Shown: positions 9,964-23,566, counted from the first letter of the stretch. The stretch: DNA of 23,566 nt from Deltaproteobacteria bacterium (GCA_024275075.1 JAJRZU010000157.1:1-23566), one strand, 5' to 3'. Notes: a model not told the origin generated them from the sequence alone. Made by a program: numbers and translations.

Positions 9964-10242
9964 TCACCCTTTCGCGGTCACTTTCTTCATAAAATCGGTG
10001 AACTCCACTTTGAACCTATCCGCTGAAAACCGCCTGGCATTCTCGATAATATCCTCGCACGCGAACCCGCCCTGCCCTGCTTCGAATCTCTTGACCGCGT
10101 CAACAAGGCTCTCGATCGTCTGGGAGTCAAAGAATATGCCCGTCTTACCGCTTATGACCGTCTCGGTGGCGCCACCCTTCCCGAACGCGATGACGGGTGT
10201 TCCACACGCCTGCGCCTCAACGGGTACGATACCGAAATCCTC
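9964..10242 (-). other. C-terminal 92 codons of the same GT4 gene, in the same frame directly after the internal TAA
   Basis: The - strand translation [41 protein letters not shown]... is the conserved GT4 catalytic C-terminus (EX7E motif). It is in frame with 10243..11076 and ends at TGA 9964-9966, 10 nt before the aminotransferase start. Confidence 0.65.
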
Positions 10243-11076
10243 TTACGCGGCGAATATGAACGCTTTCGCCCGCAGCATATAGTCACTCAAGGCATCGGCG
10301 CTCTGGTATCCCATGAGCTTGACATTCTTGCCCGCCTTCGCTTTCACCTTCTTTATGTCAGGCCCGTCACCAATGACGACGAGCTCCTTGTCTGGCATCG
10401 TCGAAAAAGCTTCCACTATCAAGTCCATCTTCTTATACGGTACCATCCGTGACGCAGCGAGGTAGAAACCAGCTTTCTCCGTATCAAGGACAGTAGCTGA
10501 ATCCATAATATTAACAGGTGGATATATAACGGTCGCGTCTTTGTTGTAGATCTTCTTGATCCTGCCTGCGGTATATTTTGAGTTCGCGATATAGTGATCG
10601 ACCCTGTTTGCGGTAGTAGCGTCCCAAATCCGCACATAATGCAGGATCGCCTTCGCCATCATCGCTTTTATGCCTCTGGTCAACCCCGCCTCCCTGAGAT
10701 ACTGGTGATACAAATCCCACGCGTAGCGCATCGGTGTGTGGCAGTAGCAGACGTGCGTCTGGTTGGAGCTGACAAGCGCGCCCTTCGCGACCGCGTGAGA
10801 TGACGAGATGACCAGATCGTACCCGGACAGGTCGAACTGTTCGATAGCAAACGGCATCAGCGGCAGGTATGACCGGTACTTGCGCTTCGCAAAGGGCATC
10901 TTCTGCAAAAACGAGGTGTTAGTCGCCTTATCAAGGATAAATCCACGCCCACCCTCTGGCAGGAAATCGACAAGGCAGAATATATCCGCCTCGGGATAGA
11001 GAGAAACTATCTGCTCCAATACCCGCTCGGAACCGGCGTATGTCACGAGCCAGTCATGTACAATTGCAGTCTTCAT
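10243..11076 (-). CDS. GT4-family glycosyltransferase, N-terminal 277 aa up to an in-frame TAA at 10243-10245
   Basis: MKTAIVHDWL...GSERV is a typical GT4/GT-B N-terminal domain. The ORF stops inside the conserved EX7E region (..[26 protein letters not shown]..). Confidence 0.75.
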   Translation of the reverse strand: MKTAIVHDWLVTYAGSERVLEQIVSLYPEADIFCLVDFLPEGGRGFILDKATNTSFLQKMPFAKRKYRSYLPLMPFAIEQFDLSGYDLVISSSHAVAKGALVSSNQTHVCYCHTPMRYAWDLYHQYLREAGLTRGIKAMMAKAILHYVRIWDATTANRVDHYIANSKYTAGRIKKIYNKDATVIYPPVNIMDSATVLDTEKAGFYLAASRMVPYKKMDLIVEAFSTMPDKELVVIGDGPDIKKVKAKAGKNVKLMGYQSADALSDYMLRAKAFIFAA

Positions 11077-11247: not shown

Positions 11248-11364
11248 AATGAAAAGACATCTAAACAGGGCTTTTCGCCCACAATGGTTACAACAAAGGA
11301 GATCAAAAATTTACTATGTATGTTTTACTATGTATGTTTCAATGTACTATTTTTACTAAAAATT

Positions 11365-12282
11365 TTACTGTGTGCTTAAAGCCAGCTCACCGTGAGCATG
11401 TGAATAGCGCTTGACCTTCTCTTTACTCTTGATCCTGACGATCTCATACTTGTCTTTTTGCGCCAGTACCTTCTTAGCCAATGTATGATTGAGCGTATGA
11501 CCGGATTTATCCGCGAGGAAGTGCCCGACAATCGGTTTCCCGATGAGCGACAAGTCACCGATCGCGTCTAATATCTTGTGCCGGACAAACTCATCCTTGT
11601 ACCTAAGCCCGTCTTCGTTCAAGACCCTGTACTTGTCCAGAACGACTACATTATCCAATGTACCGCCCTTCGCGAGACCCTGCTTCTTCAGGATATTCAC
11701 CTCGTCTAAGAACCCGAAAGTCCGCGCGTTCGCGATCTCTTTCTCAAAGTTCCTGACAGAGAATTTTAAAAGGTACGACTGGGCTGATATTACAGGGTTG
11801 TTGAACTCTATGTTGAAATGTATCTTAAAATCATTTGAAGGTAAGAGATAGGCTTTCTTGTCGCCGTCTCTCACTTTGATCGGCTTCTTGATGCGGATGT
11901 ACTCACGCTCACGCTCCTGCGTCATCGCACCAGCCATCTTGATAAGGTGCACGAAAGGAGCCGCGCTGCCATCCATGATCGGTACTTCATCGGAGCTGAC
12001 TTCCACTATCGCGTTATCTATCTTAAGACCGGAAAATGCCGCTAACAGATGCTCCACTGTCGATATCCTGTGACCGTCTTTTGCGATAGTCGTCGCGTGG
12101 TTCGTCATAACGACATTATCGGCAATAGCCTTTATCTCCGGTCGCGACGGGATATCGCTGCGTATGAATATTATACCGTCATCCGCGCCGGCAGGCCTTA
12201 TCACCAGATCGATCTTCTTACCGGTGTGGAGCCCGATACCCGAACACTTTATCTGTCTTGCTACAGTTCTTTGTAAAGGCAT
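11365..12282 (-). CDS. lpxC: UDP-3-O-acyl-N-acetylglucosamine deacetylase
   Basis: 305 aa. MPLQRTVARQIKCSGIGLHTGKKIDLVIRPA matches the LpxC N-terminus, and the conserved HKILDAIGDL and GHTLNH motifs are present. An RBS (aagggga) precedes the ATG. Confidence 0.9.
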   Translation of the reverse strand: MPLQRTVARQIKCSGIGLHTGKKIDLVIRPAGADDGIIFIRSDIPSRPEIKAIADNVVMTNHATTIAKDGHRISTVEHLLAAFSGLKIDNAIVEVSSDEVPIMDGSAAPFVHLIKMAGAMTQEREREYIRIKKPIKVRDGDKKAYLLPSNDFKIHFNIEFNNPVISAQSYLLKFSVRNFEKEIANARTFGFLDEVNILKKQGLAKGGTLDNVVVLDKYRVLNEDGLRYKDEFVRHKILDAIGDLSLIGKPIVGHFLADKSGHTLNHTLAKKVLAQKDKYEIVRIKSKEKVKRYSHAHGELALSTQ

Positions 12283-12321
12283 AACATTTTCCCCTTATAC
12301 ATAAGTGCTGTACAGTGATTG

Positions 12322-12847: not shown

Positions 12848-12924
<77 letters not shown>

Positions 12925-13013: not shown

Positions 13014-13017
13014 ACAG

Positions 13018-13092
13018 TTTATTCCATCGCGATGGTTTCTAGTTTATTCCATCGCGATGGTTTCTAGTTTATTCCATCGCGATGGTTTCTAA
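13018..13092. repeat. three tandem 25-bp repeats (TTTATTCCATCGCGATGGTTTCTAG), each containing the perfect 12-bp palindrome CCATCGCGATGG
   Basis: Three head-to-tail copies; the third ends in A instead of G. The array abuts the -35 of the tRNA-Arg promoter candidate and lies 3' of the - strand operon that ends at 13109. Confidence 0.9.
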
Positions 13093-13108: not shown

Positions 13109-13432
13109 CTATTGTGTGTCGCCACTCTCACTCTTTAGCCTAATACCGGTGCTTTGCCCCGCCGAGATTGCATTATCATCAGCCGTATTATGGTATGGGT
13201 TCTCCGATGCAGTTATTCGCGTCAACGCCGCCTCGATATTCGAGATGGATTTGTTCATCCTGATAAGCTGGCGATATGATTCATTCAGGATCGACTTCAT
13301 CTTGAATACAGCTAATGGCAGAACTATCCACATGACTATAAGCAGGAAAAACAAGAAGATAAGGAAAAAGCTAAGGAGGCTGAAAGAGCCCTGCGTAAAT
13401 ATCTTTATAAAGTCTATTTCATTCGCCATCAT
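13109..13432 (-). CDS. small single-pass membrane protein with a C-terminal coiled-coil or disordered tail (hypothetical)
   Basis: 107 aa. It has a hydrophobic segment LLSFFLIFLFFLLIVMWIVLPLAVF. It overlaps the upstream gene by 4 nt (ATGA), which suggests it is co-translated with the TPR/beta-helix protein. Confidence 0.5.
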   Translation of the reverse strand: MMANEIDFIKIFTQGSFSLLSFFLIFLFFLLIVMWIVLPLAVFKMKSILNESYRQLIRMNKSISNIEAALTRITASENPYHNTADDNAISAGQSTGIRLKSESGDTQ

Positions 13433-18504: not shown

Positions 18505-19449
18505 TCAGTCACCTTTTTTCAGATATTTGAGCGCGTCACCAACGGTGAATAAAGAACCTGAGACAAAGATAATCGAGCCGTCCTCGTACAGGTCATACGC
18601 ACGATCCAACGCGCTTTTGACATCAGGTACACTTATCACATTCGCGTCGCTTTCAAAGCCGGTTAGCAGTTTATTCGGGTCCGCCGCGCGGTTTATCGCC
18701 GGTTTGGTCAGGATGACGGTATCAGACACGCCGCACACGCGCTTTAGTATGCCCGCGGTATCCTTGTCACTCATCACACCGATAACGCTTATGATCCTCT
18801 TACCCGCGAAGTTAGCCTTGAGCGTATCGATCGCGGTGCGCATCGACGCGTCATTATGCGCGCCATCTAATATAAGAAGCGGATCGTCAGAAAAGAGATC
18901 GAACCGCCCCGCCCACTTCACGTCGCCAAGCCCGCTTCGTATGCTCCACTCCCCCACCAAAAAGCCGCTACCCTCAATCAGTTCGGTCGCGGCTATCGCC
19001 AGTGAGAAGTTGTCAAACTGGTGCCCACCCATGAGGCTCTTCTTGATACCGCTGTACGATCTGTTGATACCGGTATAATCAAACGTATCCGCACCGATCT
19101 TCGTATACGTAAAATCGCGGTGGAGCTGGTACACCTTCGCGTCCATAGCATCCGCGGCAGCCTCGATGACTTCCCGCGCCCGCTCATCATTTACGCCTGA
19201 GATAACCTCCGCGCCCCTTTTTATGATACCCGCTTTCTCCTTCGCGATCTTTGCTATTGTGTCGCCAAGGTAGCGCTGGTGCTCCATCGATATGCTCGTC
19301 AAAACGCTCACTGTAGGCGTTACAACGTTTGTCGCGTCGAGCCGCCCCCCCATACCGGTCTCTATCACCGCGATATCCACTCCCTTTAACATGAAGTAAT
19401 AAAACGCTATTGCAGTAGTATACTCAAAAAAAGTTATCTCGCAATCCAA
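18505..19449 (-). CDS. folC: bifunctional folylpolyglutamate synthase / dihydrofolate synthase, C-terminal 314 aa (after an in-frame TAG at 19510-19512)
   Basis: ETGMGGRLDATNVV, AKEKAGIIK and ILDGAHNDAS are Mur-ligase/FolC motifs. It is in the same frame as the N-terminal fragment. Confidence 0.85.
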   Translation of the reverse strand: MDCEITFFEYTTAIAFYYFMLKGVDIAVIETGMGGRLDATNVVTPTVSVLTSISMEHQRYLGDTIAKIAKEKAGIIKRGAEVISGVNDERAREVIEAAADAMDAKVYQLHRDFTYTKIGADTFDYTGINRSYSGIKKSLMGGHQFDNFSLAIAATELIEGSGFLVGEWSIRSGLGDVKWAGRFDLFSDDPLLILDGAHNDASMRTAIDTLKANFAGKRIISVIGVMSDKDTAGILKRVCGVSDTVILTKPAINRAADPNKLLTGFESDANVISVPDVKSALDRAYDLYEDGSIIFVSGSLFTVGDALKYLKKGD

Positions 19450-19512: not shown

Positions 19513-19779
19513 CTAGCCGCCGCCCGCGCGTATCCTCTCATTAAAATCGATAAGGTGGGGAGAAGTGTACAGACCGACTCTATAGCCGCTCTTTGTCAGC
19601 ATGGACTCTATCGCGGCGGCGGTAGACCCTTTCCCGTTAGTACCGGCGATGTGGATAGTCTTGTATTTTTCCTGCGGGGAAGAGAGGGCGGCGAGCAGCT
19701 TACGAATATTTGTGAGCCCGAGCTTGATACCGAATTTCTGCAGGTTGAAAAGATAATCGATCGTCTCTTTGTAATCCAT
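19513..19779 (-). CDS. folC: folC N-terminal fragment (ATP-binding P-loop region), ending at an in-frame TAG
   Basis: MDYKETIDYLFNLQKFGIKLGL...HIAGTNGKGSTAA...YTSPHLIDFNERIRAGGG* matches the FolC N-terminus, including the GTNGKGST P-loop. The ORF table starts at TTG 19815; ATG 19779 aligns better with FolC N-termini. Confidence 0.8.
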   Translation of the reverse strand: MDYKETIDYLFNLQKFGIKLGLTNIRKLLAALSSPQEKYKTIHIAGTNGKGSTAAAIESMLTKSGYRVGLYTSPHLIDFNERIRAGGG

Positions 19780-19820
19780 CAAATCATTTCTTTGCCGGTC
19801 GATGCTGATAAACAAAACAG

Positions 19821-19877
19821 GCGCTTAGTGAAATACAGGGCGCTTAGTGAAATACAGGGCGCTTAGTGAAATACAGG
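19821..19877. repeat. three tandem 19-bp repeats (GCGCTTAGTGAAATACAGG) between the cytochrome c gene and folC
   Basis: Three perfect head-to-tail copies lie 40-100 nt upstream of the folC start on the - strand. They are followed by the 8-bp inverted repeat CAGGGCGC...GCGCCCTG. Confidence 0.9.
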
Positions 19878-19906
19878 GTATACTATTCATTACAATGCGC
19901 CCTGCC

Positions 19907-20433: not shown

Positions 20434-20462
20434 TTGACATTAAATGCTGTTTTGTCTATTAT
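20434..20462 (+). promoter_or_regulatory. sigma-70 promoter for the TPR lipoprotein gene (-35 TTGACA 20434-20439, 17-nt spacer, -10 TATTAT 20457-20462)
   Basis: Consensus -35, a 17-nt spacer and a near-consensus -10. The ATG at 20497, with RBS aggaggtgggg, lies about 30 nt downstream of the predicted TSS. Confidence 0.55.
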
Positions 20463-20496
20463 TTGGATGTTATTAATATTAACAGGAGGTGGGGAT

Positions 20497-21126
20497 ATGA
20501 GAAAGGCTTACATAATTGTACTTGCATTATCAACGTTTTTGTTCTTTATCGGGTGCGCGGATAAAGTCGAGAAATCCGACAAGCAGTATAAGAAAGGCGT
20601 AGACGCCCTGCAGGAAGGTAAAACCGATGATGCGAAGAAGTTGTTCAAGAAAGCGATCACGACAAACCCGGACAACGCGAGGGCATTGTTCCAGCTTGGT
20701 ATTATACACTCTAGGATACCAGAGAATATCGAGATCGCGATAAGCTACTTAAAGCAAAGTACTGACATATTCCCGAAAAATGAAGTGGCTCATTATACAT
20801 TAGCGTCCTTGTATGGGGAGAAGGGTCTTGTAGAATATGAGATATCTGAGTTACTTAAGACGATCGCGATAAATAATGACAACGATGGCGCGCACTATAA
20901 TCTTGGCGTCATATATGCTCAGAAGGGTCTTTATGACGAAGCGCTCGTTGAATTCAACGAGGTGTTGCGCATAAACCCGAAAGATACAGGTGCGATGCTT
21001 AATACCGGTATCGCGTATTTAAGGAAAGGGGAAAAAGATAAAGCGATCGGGGTCAGGGATAAGCTCAAGGGCATGAACGAGAAACTGGCTGATACTTTAA
21101 CTAAACTACTCGATCAGATCAAGTGA
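20497..21126 (+). CDS. TPR-repeat lipoprotein
   Basis: MRKAYIIVLALSTFLFFIGC has a lipobox (FFIGC). At least 4 TPR units follow (AKKLFKKAITTNPDNARALFQLGII, AHYTLASLYGEKG, AHYNLGVIYAQKGLYDEALVEFNEVLRINPKD). The ORF table start at TTG 20434 is the -35 element; the true start is ATG 20497. Confidence 0.7.
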   Translation: MRKAYIIVLALSTFLFFIGCADKVEKSDKQYKKGVDALQEGKTDDAKKLFKKAITTNPDNARALFQLGIIHSRIPENIEIAISYLKQSTDIFPKNEVAHYTLASLYGEKGLVEYEISELLKTIAINNDNDGAHYNLGVIYAQKGLYDEALVEFNEVLRINPKDTGAMLNTGIAYLRKGEKDKAIGVRDKLKGMNEKLADTLTKLLDQIK

Positions 21127-21213
21127 AGCGGCATATTATGAGTGAGATTAAGAATATAATCAACTACTTTGCGGCAAGCTGTCTGGGTGTCAGGTTTAAG
21201 CCTCAAAGCAAGC

Positions 21214-21267
21214 TGCGGGGAATTAAACCCGCAAAAAAAAAACAGGTGAGCCTGTTGAAAGTTTTTT
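21214..21267 (+). other. two hairpins flanking an A10 tract: GCGGG-N8-CCCGC, A10, then AACAGG-TGAG-CCTGTT followed by GAAAG-TTTTTT
   Basis: It lies about 90 nt after the TPR lipoprotein stop and immediately before or at the 5' end of the DUF3857 gene. It may be a weak intrinsic terminator or attenuator. The A10 homopolymer is at 21233-21242. Confidence 0.4.
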
Positions 21268-23402
21268 CGCTTTTCTTTTTGTTTCTTTGTATCGCATCTG
21301 TTTCAAAGGCAGACCTCCTTATCACAAACAGCGGCAGAGAACTTAAAGGCGAAGTAAAAAGCATTGACAGCGAATCTGTAACTATCATCGTCAACAATGA
21401 AGAGAAGGTCTTAAAAAAAGGCGATATATTAAGGATAGACTTTACGAAGGATATCTCCGCAGACAGCGCCGTACCCTTGTCTGCTCTGAATGATACGCTC
21501 CTTAGCGACGCCGTCTCGAAGAAGGTAGCCCCCGCGGATTACCCGAACGCCGGTTATATAAAACTCTACAGCGAGCGGCAGTTTACCTATACAAAAGAAG
21601 GCGCTTTCATAGCGACATACCGTGAGATCAGGCAGATATTGCAAGAGCGCGGCAAGAATACCGGTATAGTAACCTTTGCGTATAAGAAGGGGGTTCAGAC
21701 CGCTAAAGTCGATTATGGCAGAACGGTGAACGATGAGCTTGTCTTTAAACCAGAAAACGCTAAAAACAGCATCTATAAAAGGATGGTCACCGACTATGAC
21801 CAGTCCTCTTACCGGGAATCCTCATACTTTTACCGGTACCCTGACTATGACAAGATGATGAGGATCAAATTCCCACTGCCAAACATAGTCGTCGGGTCCG
21901 TCATCGATTATCAGTTTACCGTTGAGCAGCGCATCATCGACACATTCGAACCGGTATTCAAAGAGGTCTACTTTTCGAGCAATGAACCGGTACTAAAGCA
22001 ACGCCTGATAATCAGGCGCCCGAAAGATTCCGGCGATCTGAAGATATCGTCGCGCCTCATGGGGCAGGCGGGAAGCGACTTCACCTATACTGAGAAGGAA
22101 GATGGCGAATATACTGTAATCACTTATGAAAAAGAGAACATCAAACCAGTGGAAGATGAATCGTATATGCCGTCAGACGAGATGATAATGCCAAGGGTGA
22201 TAGTATCGCTAAGCCCGAATCTCAAGGATATCGCCAAAGCGTACAGCAGGCGGCTTGAGAGGCTCCTTTTCATCAACGATGAGATAAGGGGCAAACTCTA
22301 TGAAATATTGATCGGCGCTGACGGCAGGGAAGACAAGGTATTCAGGATATACGATTATATATCAAAGGAGATAAGCGAGATACCGATCAGCCCTGAATAT
22401 TTCAGTTACCTGCCGAAAAAGAGCGATTACATATTCAGCAAAAAATCCGGTAGCAGTATCGATAAGGTGTTTATGTTATACGCTTTTTTACAGGCGGCGG
22501 ATATTGCGTGCGATTTCGCGCTGGTGCGGGACAGGAACGCCGGCGGTATATTCATGGAGAATCAGTCTATCAGGCAGTTCGGGTATCCGGTAATCATCGT
22601 ACCGCTTGATATCACTACCTTGTATATCACCGCGTTAGACAGGAACCTGACGATAAGGGATATCGACAGCTATTTGCAGGGCGGTGAATATATTATCGTA
22701 TCTGGTGATACAAGCGGCGAAGTCCGCAAGCTCCCGCTGAGGTCACCAGAGCGGGAGAGTATCTCTGACAGTTATGAGATAGAGCTTTTTGAGGACGGCG
22801 GCATTATGGTGCTCGAAAAGAGGACGGCTGCCGGTAACAAGCAGGGCTCCCTGAGACGCTACCAGTATATGCCGAAAAAGAACCTCAGGCAGGCTATGGT
22901 CAAGCGTACGCACCGGATTCACCCTAATGCTGAGTTAAAGGACTATAAATTCAAAAATTTAAGCGACCTGTCAAAAGCGCCGGAGATGGAGATAAAGTAC
23001 AGTATCGATGATTATATGATCTCCGCAGGCGACAGGTTATTCGCCTTCCAGTTGCCATCGCTCTCTTACTCCGCCTACGGGGTCGCGAAGAGTACGCGGA
23101 AGTTCCCCGTCAGCTTCGGACTGCCGATTATGACCAAAAAGAGTTATACGATAAAACTACCAAAGAACTATAAGATATACTATATGCCCGATAAATTCTC
23201 ATATAAATCCGATAACTTCACCTATGAAGCCGCATACGAAGCGAATGGAGATACTATCGTCTTTAAGGATTCATATAAAAGAGCGGATACCTTTATGCCG
23301 AAGGAAGCCTACTACGAGCTGAAAAAGTGTCTTGAGACCAGGGCGGACGTAGCCAAGGGATGGATAGTCATCGAAAGGGAGCCAAACGCTCCACCGAATT
23401 AA
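21246..23402 (+). CDS. DUF3857 / transglutaminase-like (probably catalytically inactive) / DUF3858-type secreted protein
   Basis: A signal peptide (V/M)SLLKVFSLFFLFLCIASVSKA follows GTG 21246. The central region YIFSKKSGSSIDKVFMLYAFLQAADIACDFALVRD resembles the transglutaminase core, with Ser where the catalytic Cys is expected. The ORF table gives a longer version from GTG 21123, and ATG 21138 is also possible. The 5' 120 nt carry two hairpins and an A10 tract. Confidence 0.55.
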   Translation: MSLLKVFSLFFLFLCIASVSKADLLITNSGRELKGEVKSIDSESVTIIVNNEEKVLKKGDILRIDFTKDISADSAVPLSALNDTLLSDAVSKKVAPADYPNAGYIKLYSERQFTYTKEGAFIATYREIRQILQERGKNTGIVTFAYKKGVQTAKVDYGRTVNDELVFKPENAKNSIYKRMVTDYDQSSYRESSYFYRYPDYDKMMRIKFPLPNIVVGSVIDYQFTVEQRIIDTFEPVFKEVYFSSNEPVLKQRLIIRRPKDSGDLKISSRLMGQAGSDFTYTEKEDGEYTVITYEKENIKPVEDESYMPSDEMIMPRVIVSLSPNLKDIAKAYSRRLERLLFINDEIRGKLYEILIGADGREDKVFRIYDYISKEISEIPISPEYFSYLPKKSDYIFSKKSGSSIDKVFMLYAFLQAADIACDFALVRDRNAGGIFMENQSIRQFGYPVIIVPLDITTLYITALDRNLTIRDIDSYLQGGEYIIVSGDTSGEVRKLPLRSPERESISDSYEIELFEDGGIMVLEKRTAAGNKQGSLRRYQYMPKKNLRQAMVKRTHRIHPNAELKDYKFKNLSDLSKAPEMEIKYSIDDYMISAGDRLFAFQLPSLSYSAYGVAKSTRKFPVSFGLPIMTKKSYTIKLPKNYKIYYMPDKFSYKSDNFTYEAAYEANGDTIVFKDSYKRADTFMPKEAYYELKKCLETRADVAKGWIVIEREPNAPPN

Positions 23403-23566
23403 GGGAGCCAAACGCTCCACCGAATTAAGGGAGCCAAACGCTCCACCGAAATAAGGGAGCCAAACGCTCCACCGAAATAAGGGAGCCAAACGCTCCACCG
23501 AAATAAGGGAGCCAAACGCTCCACCGAAATAAGGGAGCCAAACGCTCCACCGAAATAAGGGAGCCA
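23377..23566. repeat. tandem array of a 26-bp unit GGGAGCCAAACGCTCCACCGAA(T/A)TAA, at least 7.3 copies, continuing beyond the window end
   Basis: The first unit is the last 8 codons plus the stop of the DUF3857 gene. Units 1-2 read GAATTAA and units 3-7 read GAAATAA. Each unit can form the hairpin GGAGC-CAAAC-GCTCC. There are no spacers, so it is not CRISPR-like. Confidence 0.9.

Follow-up and report, generated by a model that had tools for sequence, protein, structure and literature searches.

What kind of element is a string of nearly identical 26-nt units that begins inside the last codons of a gene and continues without interruption to the very end of a contig, and how might it have arisen? 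The question is raised by contig JAJRZU010000157.1 (positions 1-23566) in the assembly GCA_024275075.1 of a Deltaproteobacteria bacterium, and specifically by the tandem array at the 3′ end of its DUF3857-domain gene. The window analyzed here is the entire contig of 23,566 nt, which places the array at the end of the contig and not simply at the edge of a chosen region. The reading that we favor, and hold to be rather probable, is that the array is a young variable number tandem repeat (VNTR, or minisatellite), generated by slippage and probably neutral.

Tandem Repeats Finder (TRF) reports the array on the plus strand at 23375-23566, with a period of 26, 7.4 copies and 99% matches (score 370), and a pattern search of the window recovers seven exact copies of the unit GGGAGCCAAACGCTCCACCGAA(T/A)TAA at 23377-23558, where 100 shuffles give an expectation of zero. 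The two methods thus bear out a preliminary description of this DNA, in which at least seven tandem 26-bp copies had been recognized. Its starting position of 23377 is correct for the first exact unit, while the periodicity already begins at 23375 (AAGGGAGCC), two bases earlier. Similarly, the array had been said to run off the window: it does reach the end, but more exactly it runs off the contig, as the seven full copies are followed by the first eight bases of copy 8 (23559-23566) and the last base of the array is also the last base of the contig. All copies share one orientation, and their start-to-start spacing of 26 equals the unit length. The variant base is unit position 23, which is T in copies 1-2 (23377-23428, ending CCGAATTAA) and A in copies 3-7 (23429-23558, ending CCGAAATAA), a distribution that supports the earlier proposal of two sub-variants as the sign of a stepwise expansion. 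The same base affects the minus strand, where the tail of each unit had been given as CTTATTT; this is accurate for the A-variant copies, whereas the T-variant copies read CTTAATT. No further copy of the unit within three mismatches is present on either strand of the 23.5-kb window.

The gene in which the array begins (PF12969, E 2e-11) lies at 21138-23402 on the plus strand and encodes 754 aa from the ATG at 21138, identical (100%) to P0001 (754 aa), which is recorded on a contig as long as the window; its open reading frame (ORF) opens at a GTG at 21123, which gives a 759-aa alternative. It ends with ATC GAA AGG GAG CCA AAC GCT CCA CCG AAT TAA, and copy 1 of the array holds its last nine codons and stop. 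Translation confirms that the first copy encodes the C-terminus EREPNAPPN-stop, to which it contributes PNAPPN and the stop codon. Because copy 1 already terminates the protein, the number of copies in the array leaves the DUF3857 protein unchanged. Each later copy had been credited with an in-frame TAA as well, which proved incorrect: since 26 equals 2 modulo 3, the TAAs rotate among frames, only that of copy 1 shares the frame of the gene, and all three plus-strand frames are closed within three copies. The 26-nt unit contains no ATG, GTG or TTG, as read from the sequence.

The origin of the unit can be approached through five DUF3857 homologues (47-56% identity; loci L001-L005). Homologues terminate in ...WIVIEKE-stop, and the codons corresponding to this end are where the unit starts, which supports the suggestion that the array arose within the final codons of the gene. 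In L001, L004 and L005 the genes end GAAAAGGAGTGA (ATA GAA AAG GAG TGA), with the variant AAAAGGAAGTGA (ATT AAA AGG AAG TGA) in L004, and the ATG of yjbQ follows 4-5 nt after the gene end; the last DUF3857 codons in these three loci therefore double as the Shine-Dalgarno (SD) box of yjbQ. The AAGGAG of the homologues, a few bases before yjbQ, is equivalent in position to the SD-like AAGGGAG that heads every unit of the array (first instance 23375-23381, plus strand). The homologue in L003 has a C-terminal extension of nearly equal length that ends TCTCCGAATTAA (...TCT CCG AAT TAA), and the final nine nucleotides of copy 1, CCGAATTAA, are identical to this gene end when the two are anchored at the stop codon. 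Because of this identity, the T variant is most likely the original form, and the A variant would be a later mutation that expanded distally. As judged from these sequence comparisons, the array has been built from native DNA, with no inserted element. Descent of the unit from the SD box and 5′ end of yjbQ, with which it shares ACCGAAT, was also considered and rejected, the alignment being no better than those of shuffled units (p 0.4-0.95).

The yjbQ gene is co-oriented with the DUF3857 gene in all four relatives with downstream sequence, and in three of the five relatives the DUF3857-yjbQ junction carries no repeat and merely amounts to the 4-5 nt mentioned above. In L002, in contrast, the spacer measures 230 nt and contains, at 12085-12285, three or more decayed copies of another unit of 23-24 nt (GG, a GCAGC/GCTGC stem, a T-run and TAG), the first of which supplies the stop codon of the DUF3857 gene; the sole other match to this unit in the 21.6-kb locus is a 13-nt exact repeat at 12202. 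Homology between the L002 unit and that of the window was rejected, as they have only a layout in common (GG, 5-bp stem, tail, stop codon) and no identity that is convincing by eye. With arrays at this junction in both L002 and the window, duplication of hairpin units has thus struck the DUF3857-yjbQ site in two lineages. We prefer to read this as a structural hotspot, and tolerance of such units, or some benefit from them, may be involved instead. In the window, whatever gene follows would be pushed at least about 220 nt further off and the tight coupling of the three relatives abolished.

The end of the contig is informative in its own right. Its perfectly periodic suffix, which starts right after the last T-variant base at 23425, measures exactly 141 nt (23426-23566), as is characteristic of a de Bruijn unitig at k=141 that stops upon entering a cycle. 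The largest k in the default k-list of MEGAHIT is 141, and the number points to MEGAHIT as the assembler; the k141_ naming of the MEGAHIT convention is visible on the L005 record, which is unrelated to the present one. In simulations, an edge-centric de Bruijn graph was built from the real left flank plus N copies of the A variant, and the periodic suffix of the unitig entering from the left was always equal to k. At k=141 this unitig stopped only if the A run reached at least 167 nt, enough to close the 26-node cycle, so that six A copies were read through and seven or more led to a stop. As the contig stops exactly where the k=141 graph turns cyclic, more copies must exist: on this model the true array would have at least about 8-9 copies, the assembled number would be a floor that is truncated rather than inflated, and the contig would end inside the array because the run of identical copies exceeds the largest k-mer (141). 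The edge of a larger array, one of several possibilities listed in the preliminary description, is accordingly among those that fit best.

A replication-slippage hotspot, from the same list, fits comparably well, and the course of events may be pictured as follows. A 26-nt segment at the gene end, comprising the last DUF3857 codons, the TAA stop and the SD-like box that serves yjbQ in relatives, would have been duplicated once, and the copies would then have multiplied by slipped-strand mispairing or unequal recombination. One copy would have gained the T-to-A change, and that variant would have expanded on the gene-distal side. The small hairpin within each unit plausibly favors slippage. Support for this reading comes from the 99-100% identical head-to-tail copies with a single polar variant, and a selected function for the array is probably absent.

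The closest known counterparts of such a structure are the bacterial VNTRs or minisatellites used in multilocus VNTR analysis (MLVA), which show the same head-to-tail, near-identical units of tens of bases with a polar variant at a gene end. Expansion by slippage is accepted for these loci, and short-read assemblies are typically broken there, as is the case in the array. High-identity head-to-tail units of about 10-100 bp are found here (period 26, 99% matches), and the unit is of local rather than inserted origin (the ...IEKE codons of the homologues, and CCGAATTAA in L003). One difference is that the 26-nt unit has no match anywhere searched. Several further points weigh against a neutral VNTR. 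Variation in copy number is the defining property of these loci, and for this array it is a presumption, the evidence being one assembled contig that stops before the downstream flank. The identity of the assembler hangs on the number 141 alone, and the claim of neutrality draws on a lack of evidence. In addition, the SD-like box is buried in the stem of each unit, a layout that a regulatory element could use, and the decayed hairpin-plus-stop units at the same junction in L002 indicate that repeated hairpins there could be tolerated or even favored.

The 26-nt array is not the only duplication on the 23.5-kb contig, which carries three more perfect intergenic tandem arrays whose units are unrelated to each other and to the 26-nt unit. 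A 25-nt unit, AGTTTATTCCATCGCGATGGTTTCT, is repeated three times at 13016-13091, contains a 12-nt palindrome (CCATCGCGATGG) and lies between a 107-aa ORF (13109-13432, minus strand) and tRNA-Arg(TCG) (12848-12924, minus strand). Directly upstream of the start (19815, minus strand) of a Mur-ligase N-terminal fragment, 3.1 copies of the 19-nt unit GGCGCTTAGTGAAATACAG occupy 19820-19878. Finally, the 14-nt TTTACTATGTATGT is present in 2.1 copies at 11310-11339, just downstream of lpxC (11365-12282, minus strand). Two further relatives with 80% PtsI identity and partial synteny (L006 and L007) were compared: no tandem repeat with a period of at least 10 was detected in their 39 kb at the same threshold, and the syntenic spacer beside lpxC in L007 has no repeat like that at 11310-11339.

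Two conserved genes on the contig are interrupted by stop codons. A glycosyltransferase (GT4/GT1; 9976-11076, minus strand) has an in-frame TAA at 10243-10245, in a conserved ...FAA(D)EDFG... position, and apart from this shares 64% identity with the intact L007 protein across 364 aa; this TAA may represent a nonsense mutation, a pseudogene or a consensus error. The Mur-ligase gene (minus strand) is split by an in-frame TAG at 19513-19515 into two same-frame ORFs, one of which (19513-19815) matches the start of Mur_ligase_M and the other (18505-19449) the rest of Mur_ligase_M together with Mur_ligase_C. The extra arrays and the two interrupted genes hint at short duplications and lesions building up in the genome, or in the data set, and a neutral mutational origin of the 26-nt array is therefore favored over a dedicated function or element. 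Relaxed selection, a mutator background or data quality are possible causes, which is relevant to users of this metagenome-assembled genome (MAG).

The remaining content of the contig is that of a bacterial chromosome, with rpoN-hpf-ptsN-hprK-rapZ-PTS(man)-ptsI, lpxC, tRNA-Arg, maf and other housekeeping genes. The PtsI encoded here shares at most 80% of its residues with metagenomic proteins, and about 60% with its counterparts in MAGs of the Thermodesulfobacteriota/'Deltaproteobacteria', of which the host is an uncultured member. Upstream of the array, the DUF3857 ORF is overlapped at its start by a TPR-repeat gene (20434-21126, plus strand), a conserved upstream partner in relatives that is also found in front of the DUF3857 homologue in L003 and L005. 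At the other end of the contig (1-1059) no repeat is present; rpoN is cut mid-gene there, so that the activator-interacting domain is missing, and L006 and L007 have the full gene of 477-479 aa.

The alternative that survives best, although we regard it as doubtful, is that the array acts as a functional string of hairpins between cistrons or in a 3′ untranslated region, either protecting the upstream mRNA from 3′-to-5′ decay, by analogy with repetitive extragenic palindromic (REP) sequences and bacterial interspersed mosaic elements (BIMEs), or tuning translation by hiding or presenting an SD box. A hairpin is indeed predicted in every unit on the plus strand, GGAGC-CAAAC-GCTCC (5 bp; first instance 23378-23392 and every 26 nt thereafter), which agrees with the GGAGC/GCTCC stem and 5-nt loop noted previously. 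The GGAG of the SD-like box forms the 5′ arm of this hairpin, the AAGGGAG at each unit start stands where relatives have the SD box of yjbQ, and L002 offers its decayed units at the same junction. However, the stem has only 5 bp, and its predicted RNA free energy (about -8.1 kcal/mol on the plus strand and -9.6 on the minus strand) is modestly better than that of shuffles (z about -2), so the hairpin is weak; in the predicted fold of the whole array, pairing between units is promiscuous. Moreover, the identity of the copies speaks for a recent expansion and not for conservation, the junction is free of repeats in three of the five relatives, and the downstream gene whose expression would be tuned lies off the contig.

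The Rfam searches likewise speak against such a function. The sole gathering-level Rfam match over the window is the tRNA at 12851-12924, and relaxing the search to E<=10 over 23200-23566 yields one chance match, outside the array. A structured small RNA, as had been proposed among other options, is not supported, given the absence of an Rfam match and a 5-bp hairpin that improves on shuffles only modestly. The idea of a dispersed repeat family, for which a search had been suggested, fared no better: neither genome, metagenome nor viral collections contain an exact match to the 22-nt core of the unit, plasmid and phage sequences gave no blastn match to the array, further copies of the unit or of its hairpin core are absent from the window and from all seven related loci (L001-L007), and protein-guided locus searches of genome and metagenome contig collections found no relatives. 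The REPs and BIMEs of enterobacteria and pseudomonads resemble the array in being small G+C-rich hairpins just past a stop codon that are sometimes clustered and can stabilize the upstream mRNA, but REPs are dispersed in hundreds of copies as longer imperfect palindromes of alternating orientation, whereas here all units are direct, the stem has 5 bp and there is no other copy in 23.5 kb.

A bolder version of the functional proposal would make the DUF3857 junction a place at which this uncultured Thermodesulfobacteriota lineage repeatedly forms arrays of small hairpins, each hairpin with a stop codon and an SD-like box, fresh in the window and decayed in L002, the array then serving as a copy-number-tunable insulator or attenuator of translational coupling, or as an mRNA-stabilizing tail. 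We consider this improbable; if true, it would add a new type of regulatory repeat that arises locally between cistrons. The named family that comes closest, in terms of position, is the mycobacterial interspersed repetitive unit (MIRU), whose tandem units lie between co-oriented operon genes with their ends overlapping the flanking stop and start codons. MIRUs are transcribed within polycistronic mRNA (Supply et al. 1997, as reviewed in PMC3184786, PMC12548453), measure 40-100 bp, occupy about 40-50 loci per genome, include small ORFs with coupling to the gene that follows, and have the look of insertions (PMC3184786, PMC12548453). The unit of the array differs in its 26 nt, the lack of a start codon, its local derivation and the one locus seen, and it supplies the upstream stop only.

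Three other explanations stand level with one another and appear more improbable still. The first is that the units act on the minus strand as weak intrinsic terminators for a convergent gene beyond the contig end. A permissive consensus scan flags four A-variant units on that strand (GGAGCGTTTGGCTCC followed by CTTATTTCGG), and the form that expanded, the A variant, supplies a T on this strand and so gives a better T-run. The 5-bp stems and the interrupted T-tract would nevertheless make very weak terminators, yjbQ is co-oriented and not convergent in all four relatives with downstream sequence, and the downstream gene in this genome lies beyond the contig end.

Protein-binding direct repeats, similar to iterons or operators, form the second of these explanations. 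The direct spacing is regular, and two of the other arrays, the threefold 19-nt one upstream of a gene and the threefold 25-nt one with its 12-nt palindrome, resemble operator layouts. Yet the units of the four arrays are unrelated, and the combination of perfect identity with absence from relatives indicates recent duplication. A period of 26 nt corresponds to 2.5 helical turns, which would place successive sites on opposite faces of the helix. The context is chromosomal and housekeeping, with TPR, DUF3857, Mur ligase, Maf, SPFH and phosphotransferase system (PTS) genes as neighbors, and no replication initiator or partition gene of the kind expected near iterons or an origin (rep, par or dnaA) was found among them.

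The third is an assembly artefact, in which the true genome has 1-2 copies and the assembler walked round a loop. The array does occupy the end of a contig, a place where de Bruijn assemblers are prone to error. On the other hand, the contig halts at the first k-mer within the cycle and not after circling. Since every 141-mer of a unitig must be present in the reads, a collapse to 1-2 copies is unlikely. The order T,T,A,A,A... requires spanning reads, and in the simulation a stop at this point came about only with data containing 167 nt or more of pure repeat.

Least credible of all is a gene on the minus strand that enters from beyond the contig end and encodes a protein with the 26-residue repeat LFRWSVWLPYFGGAFGSLISVERLAP, for although the A-variant copies have no stop in any minus-strand frame, an open 26-nt unit arises by chance in about one case in three, too often for significance, of the three frames only one stays open across the T-variant copies, to be closed about 40 codons into the DUF3857 antisense, the 26-residue repeat has no above-threshold Pfam match, and a 26-nt period that cycles through three frames is unlike the normal build of repeat proteins.

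CRISPR arrays also come to mind, since the array shares with them short repeats, here of 26 nt, with an internal palindrome. The view that this is not a CRISPR, expressed at the outset, is supported by the spacing of 26, equal to the unit length, which leaves the array without any spacers; none of 20 ORFs of the contig scanned with Pfam is a cas gene, the scans returning housekeeping genes only, and the downstream side lies off the contig. The CRISPR, REP/BIME, MIRU and iteron readings were all rejected, as each fails on at least one defining feature.

A young VNTR that is probably neutral thus remains the preferred explanation, and the finding is one of ordinary VNTR biology: one more bacterial minisatellite, in this case in an uncultured Thermodesulfobacteriota MAG. 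The array explains the point at which the contig ends, and its assembled copy number should be read as a floor set by k=141 and not as a measurement. The contig as a whole is notable for an unusual density of perfect short tandem duplications along with two nonsense-interrupted genes, and the locus is a possible strain marker should long reads become available.

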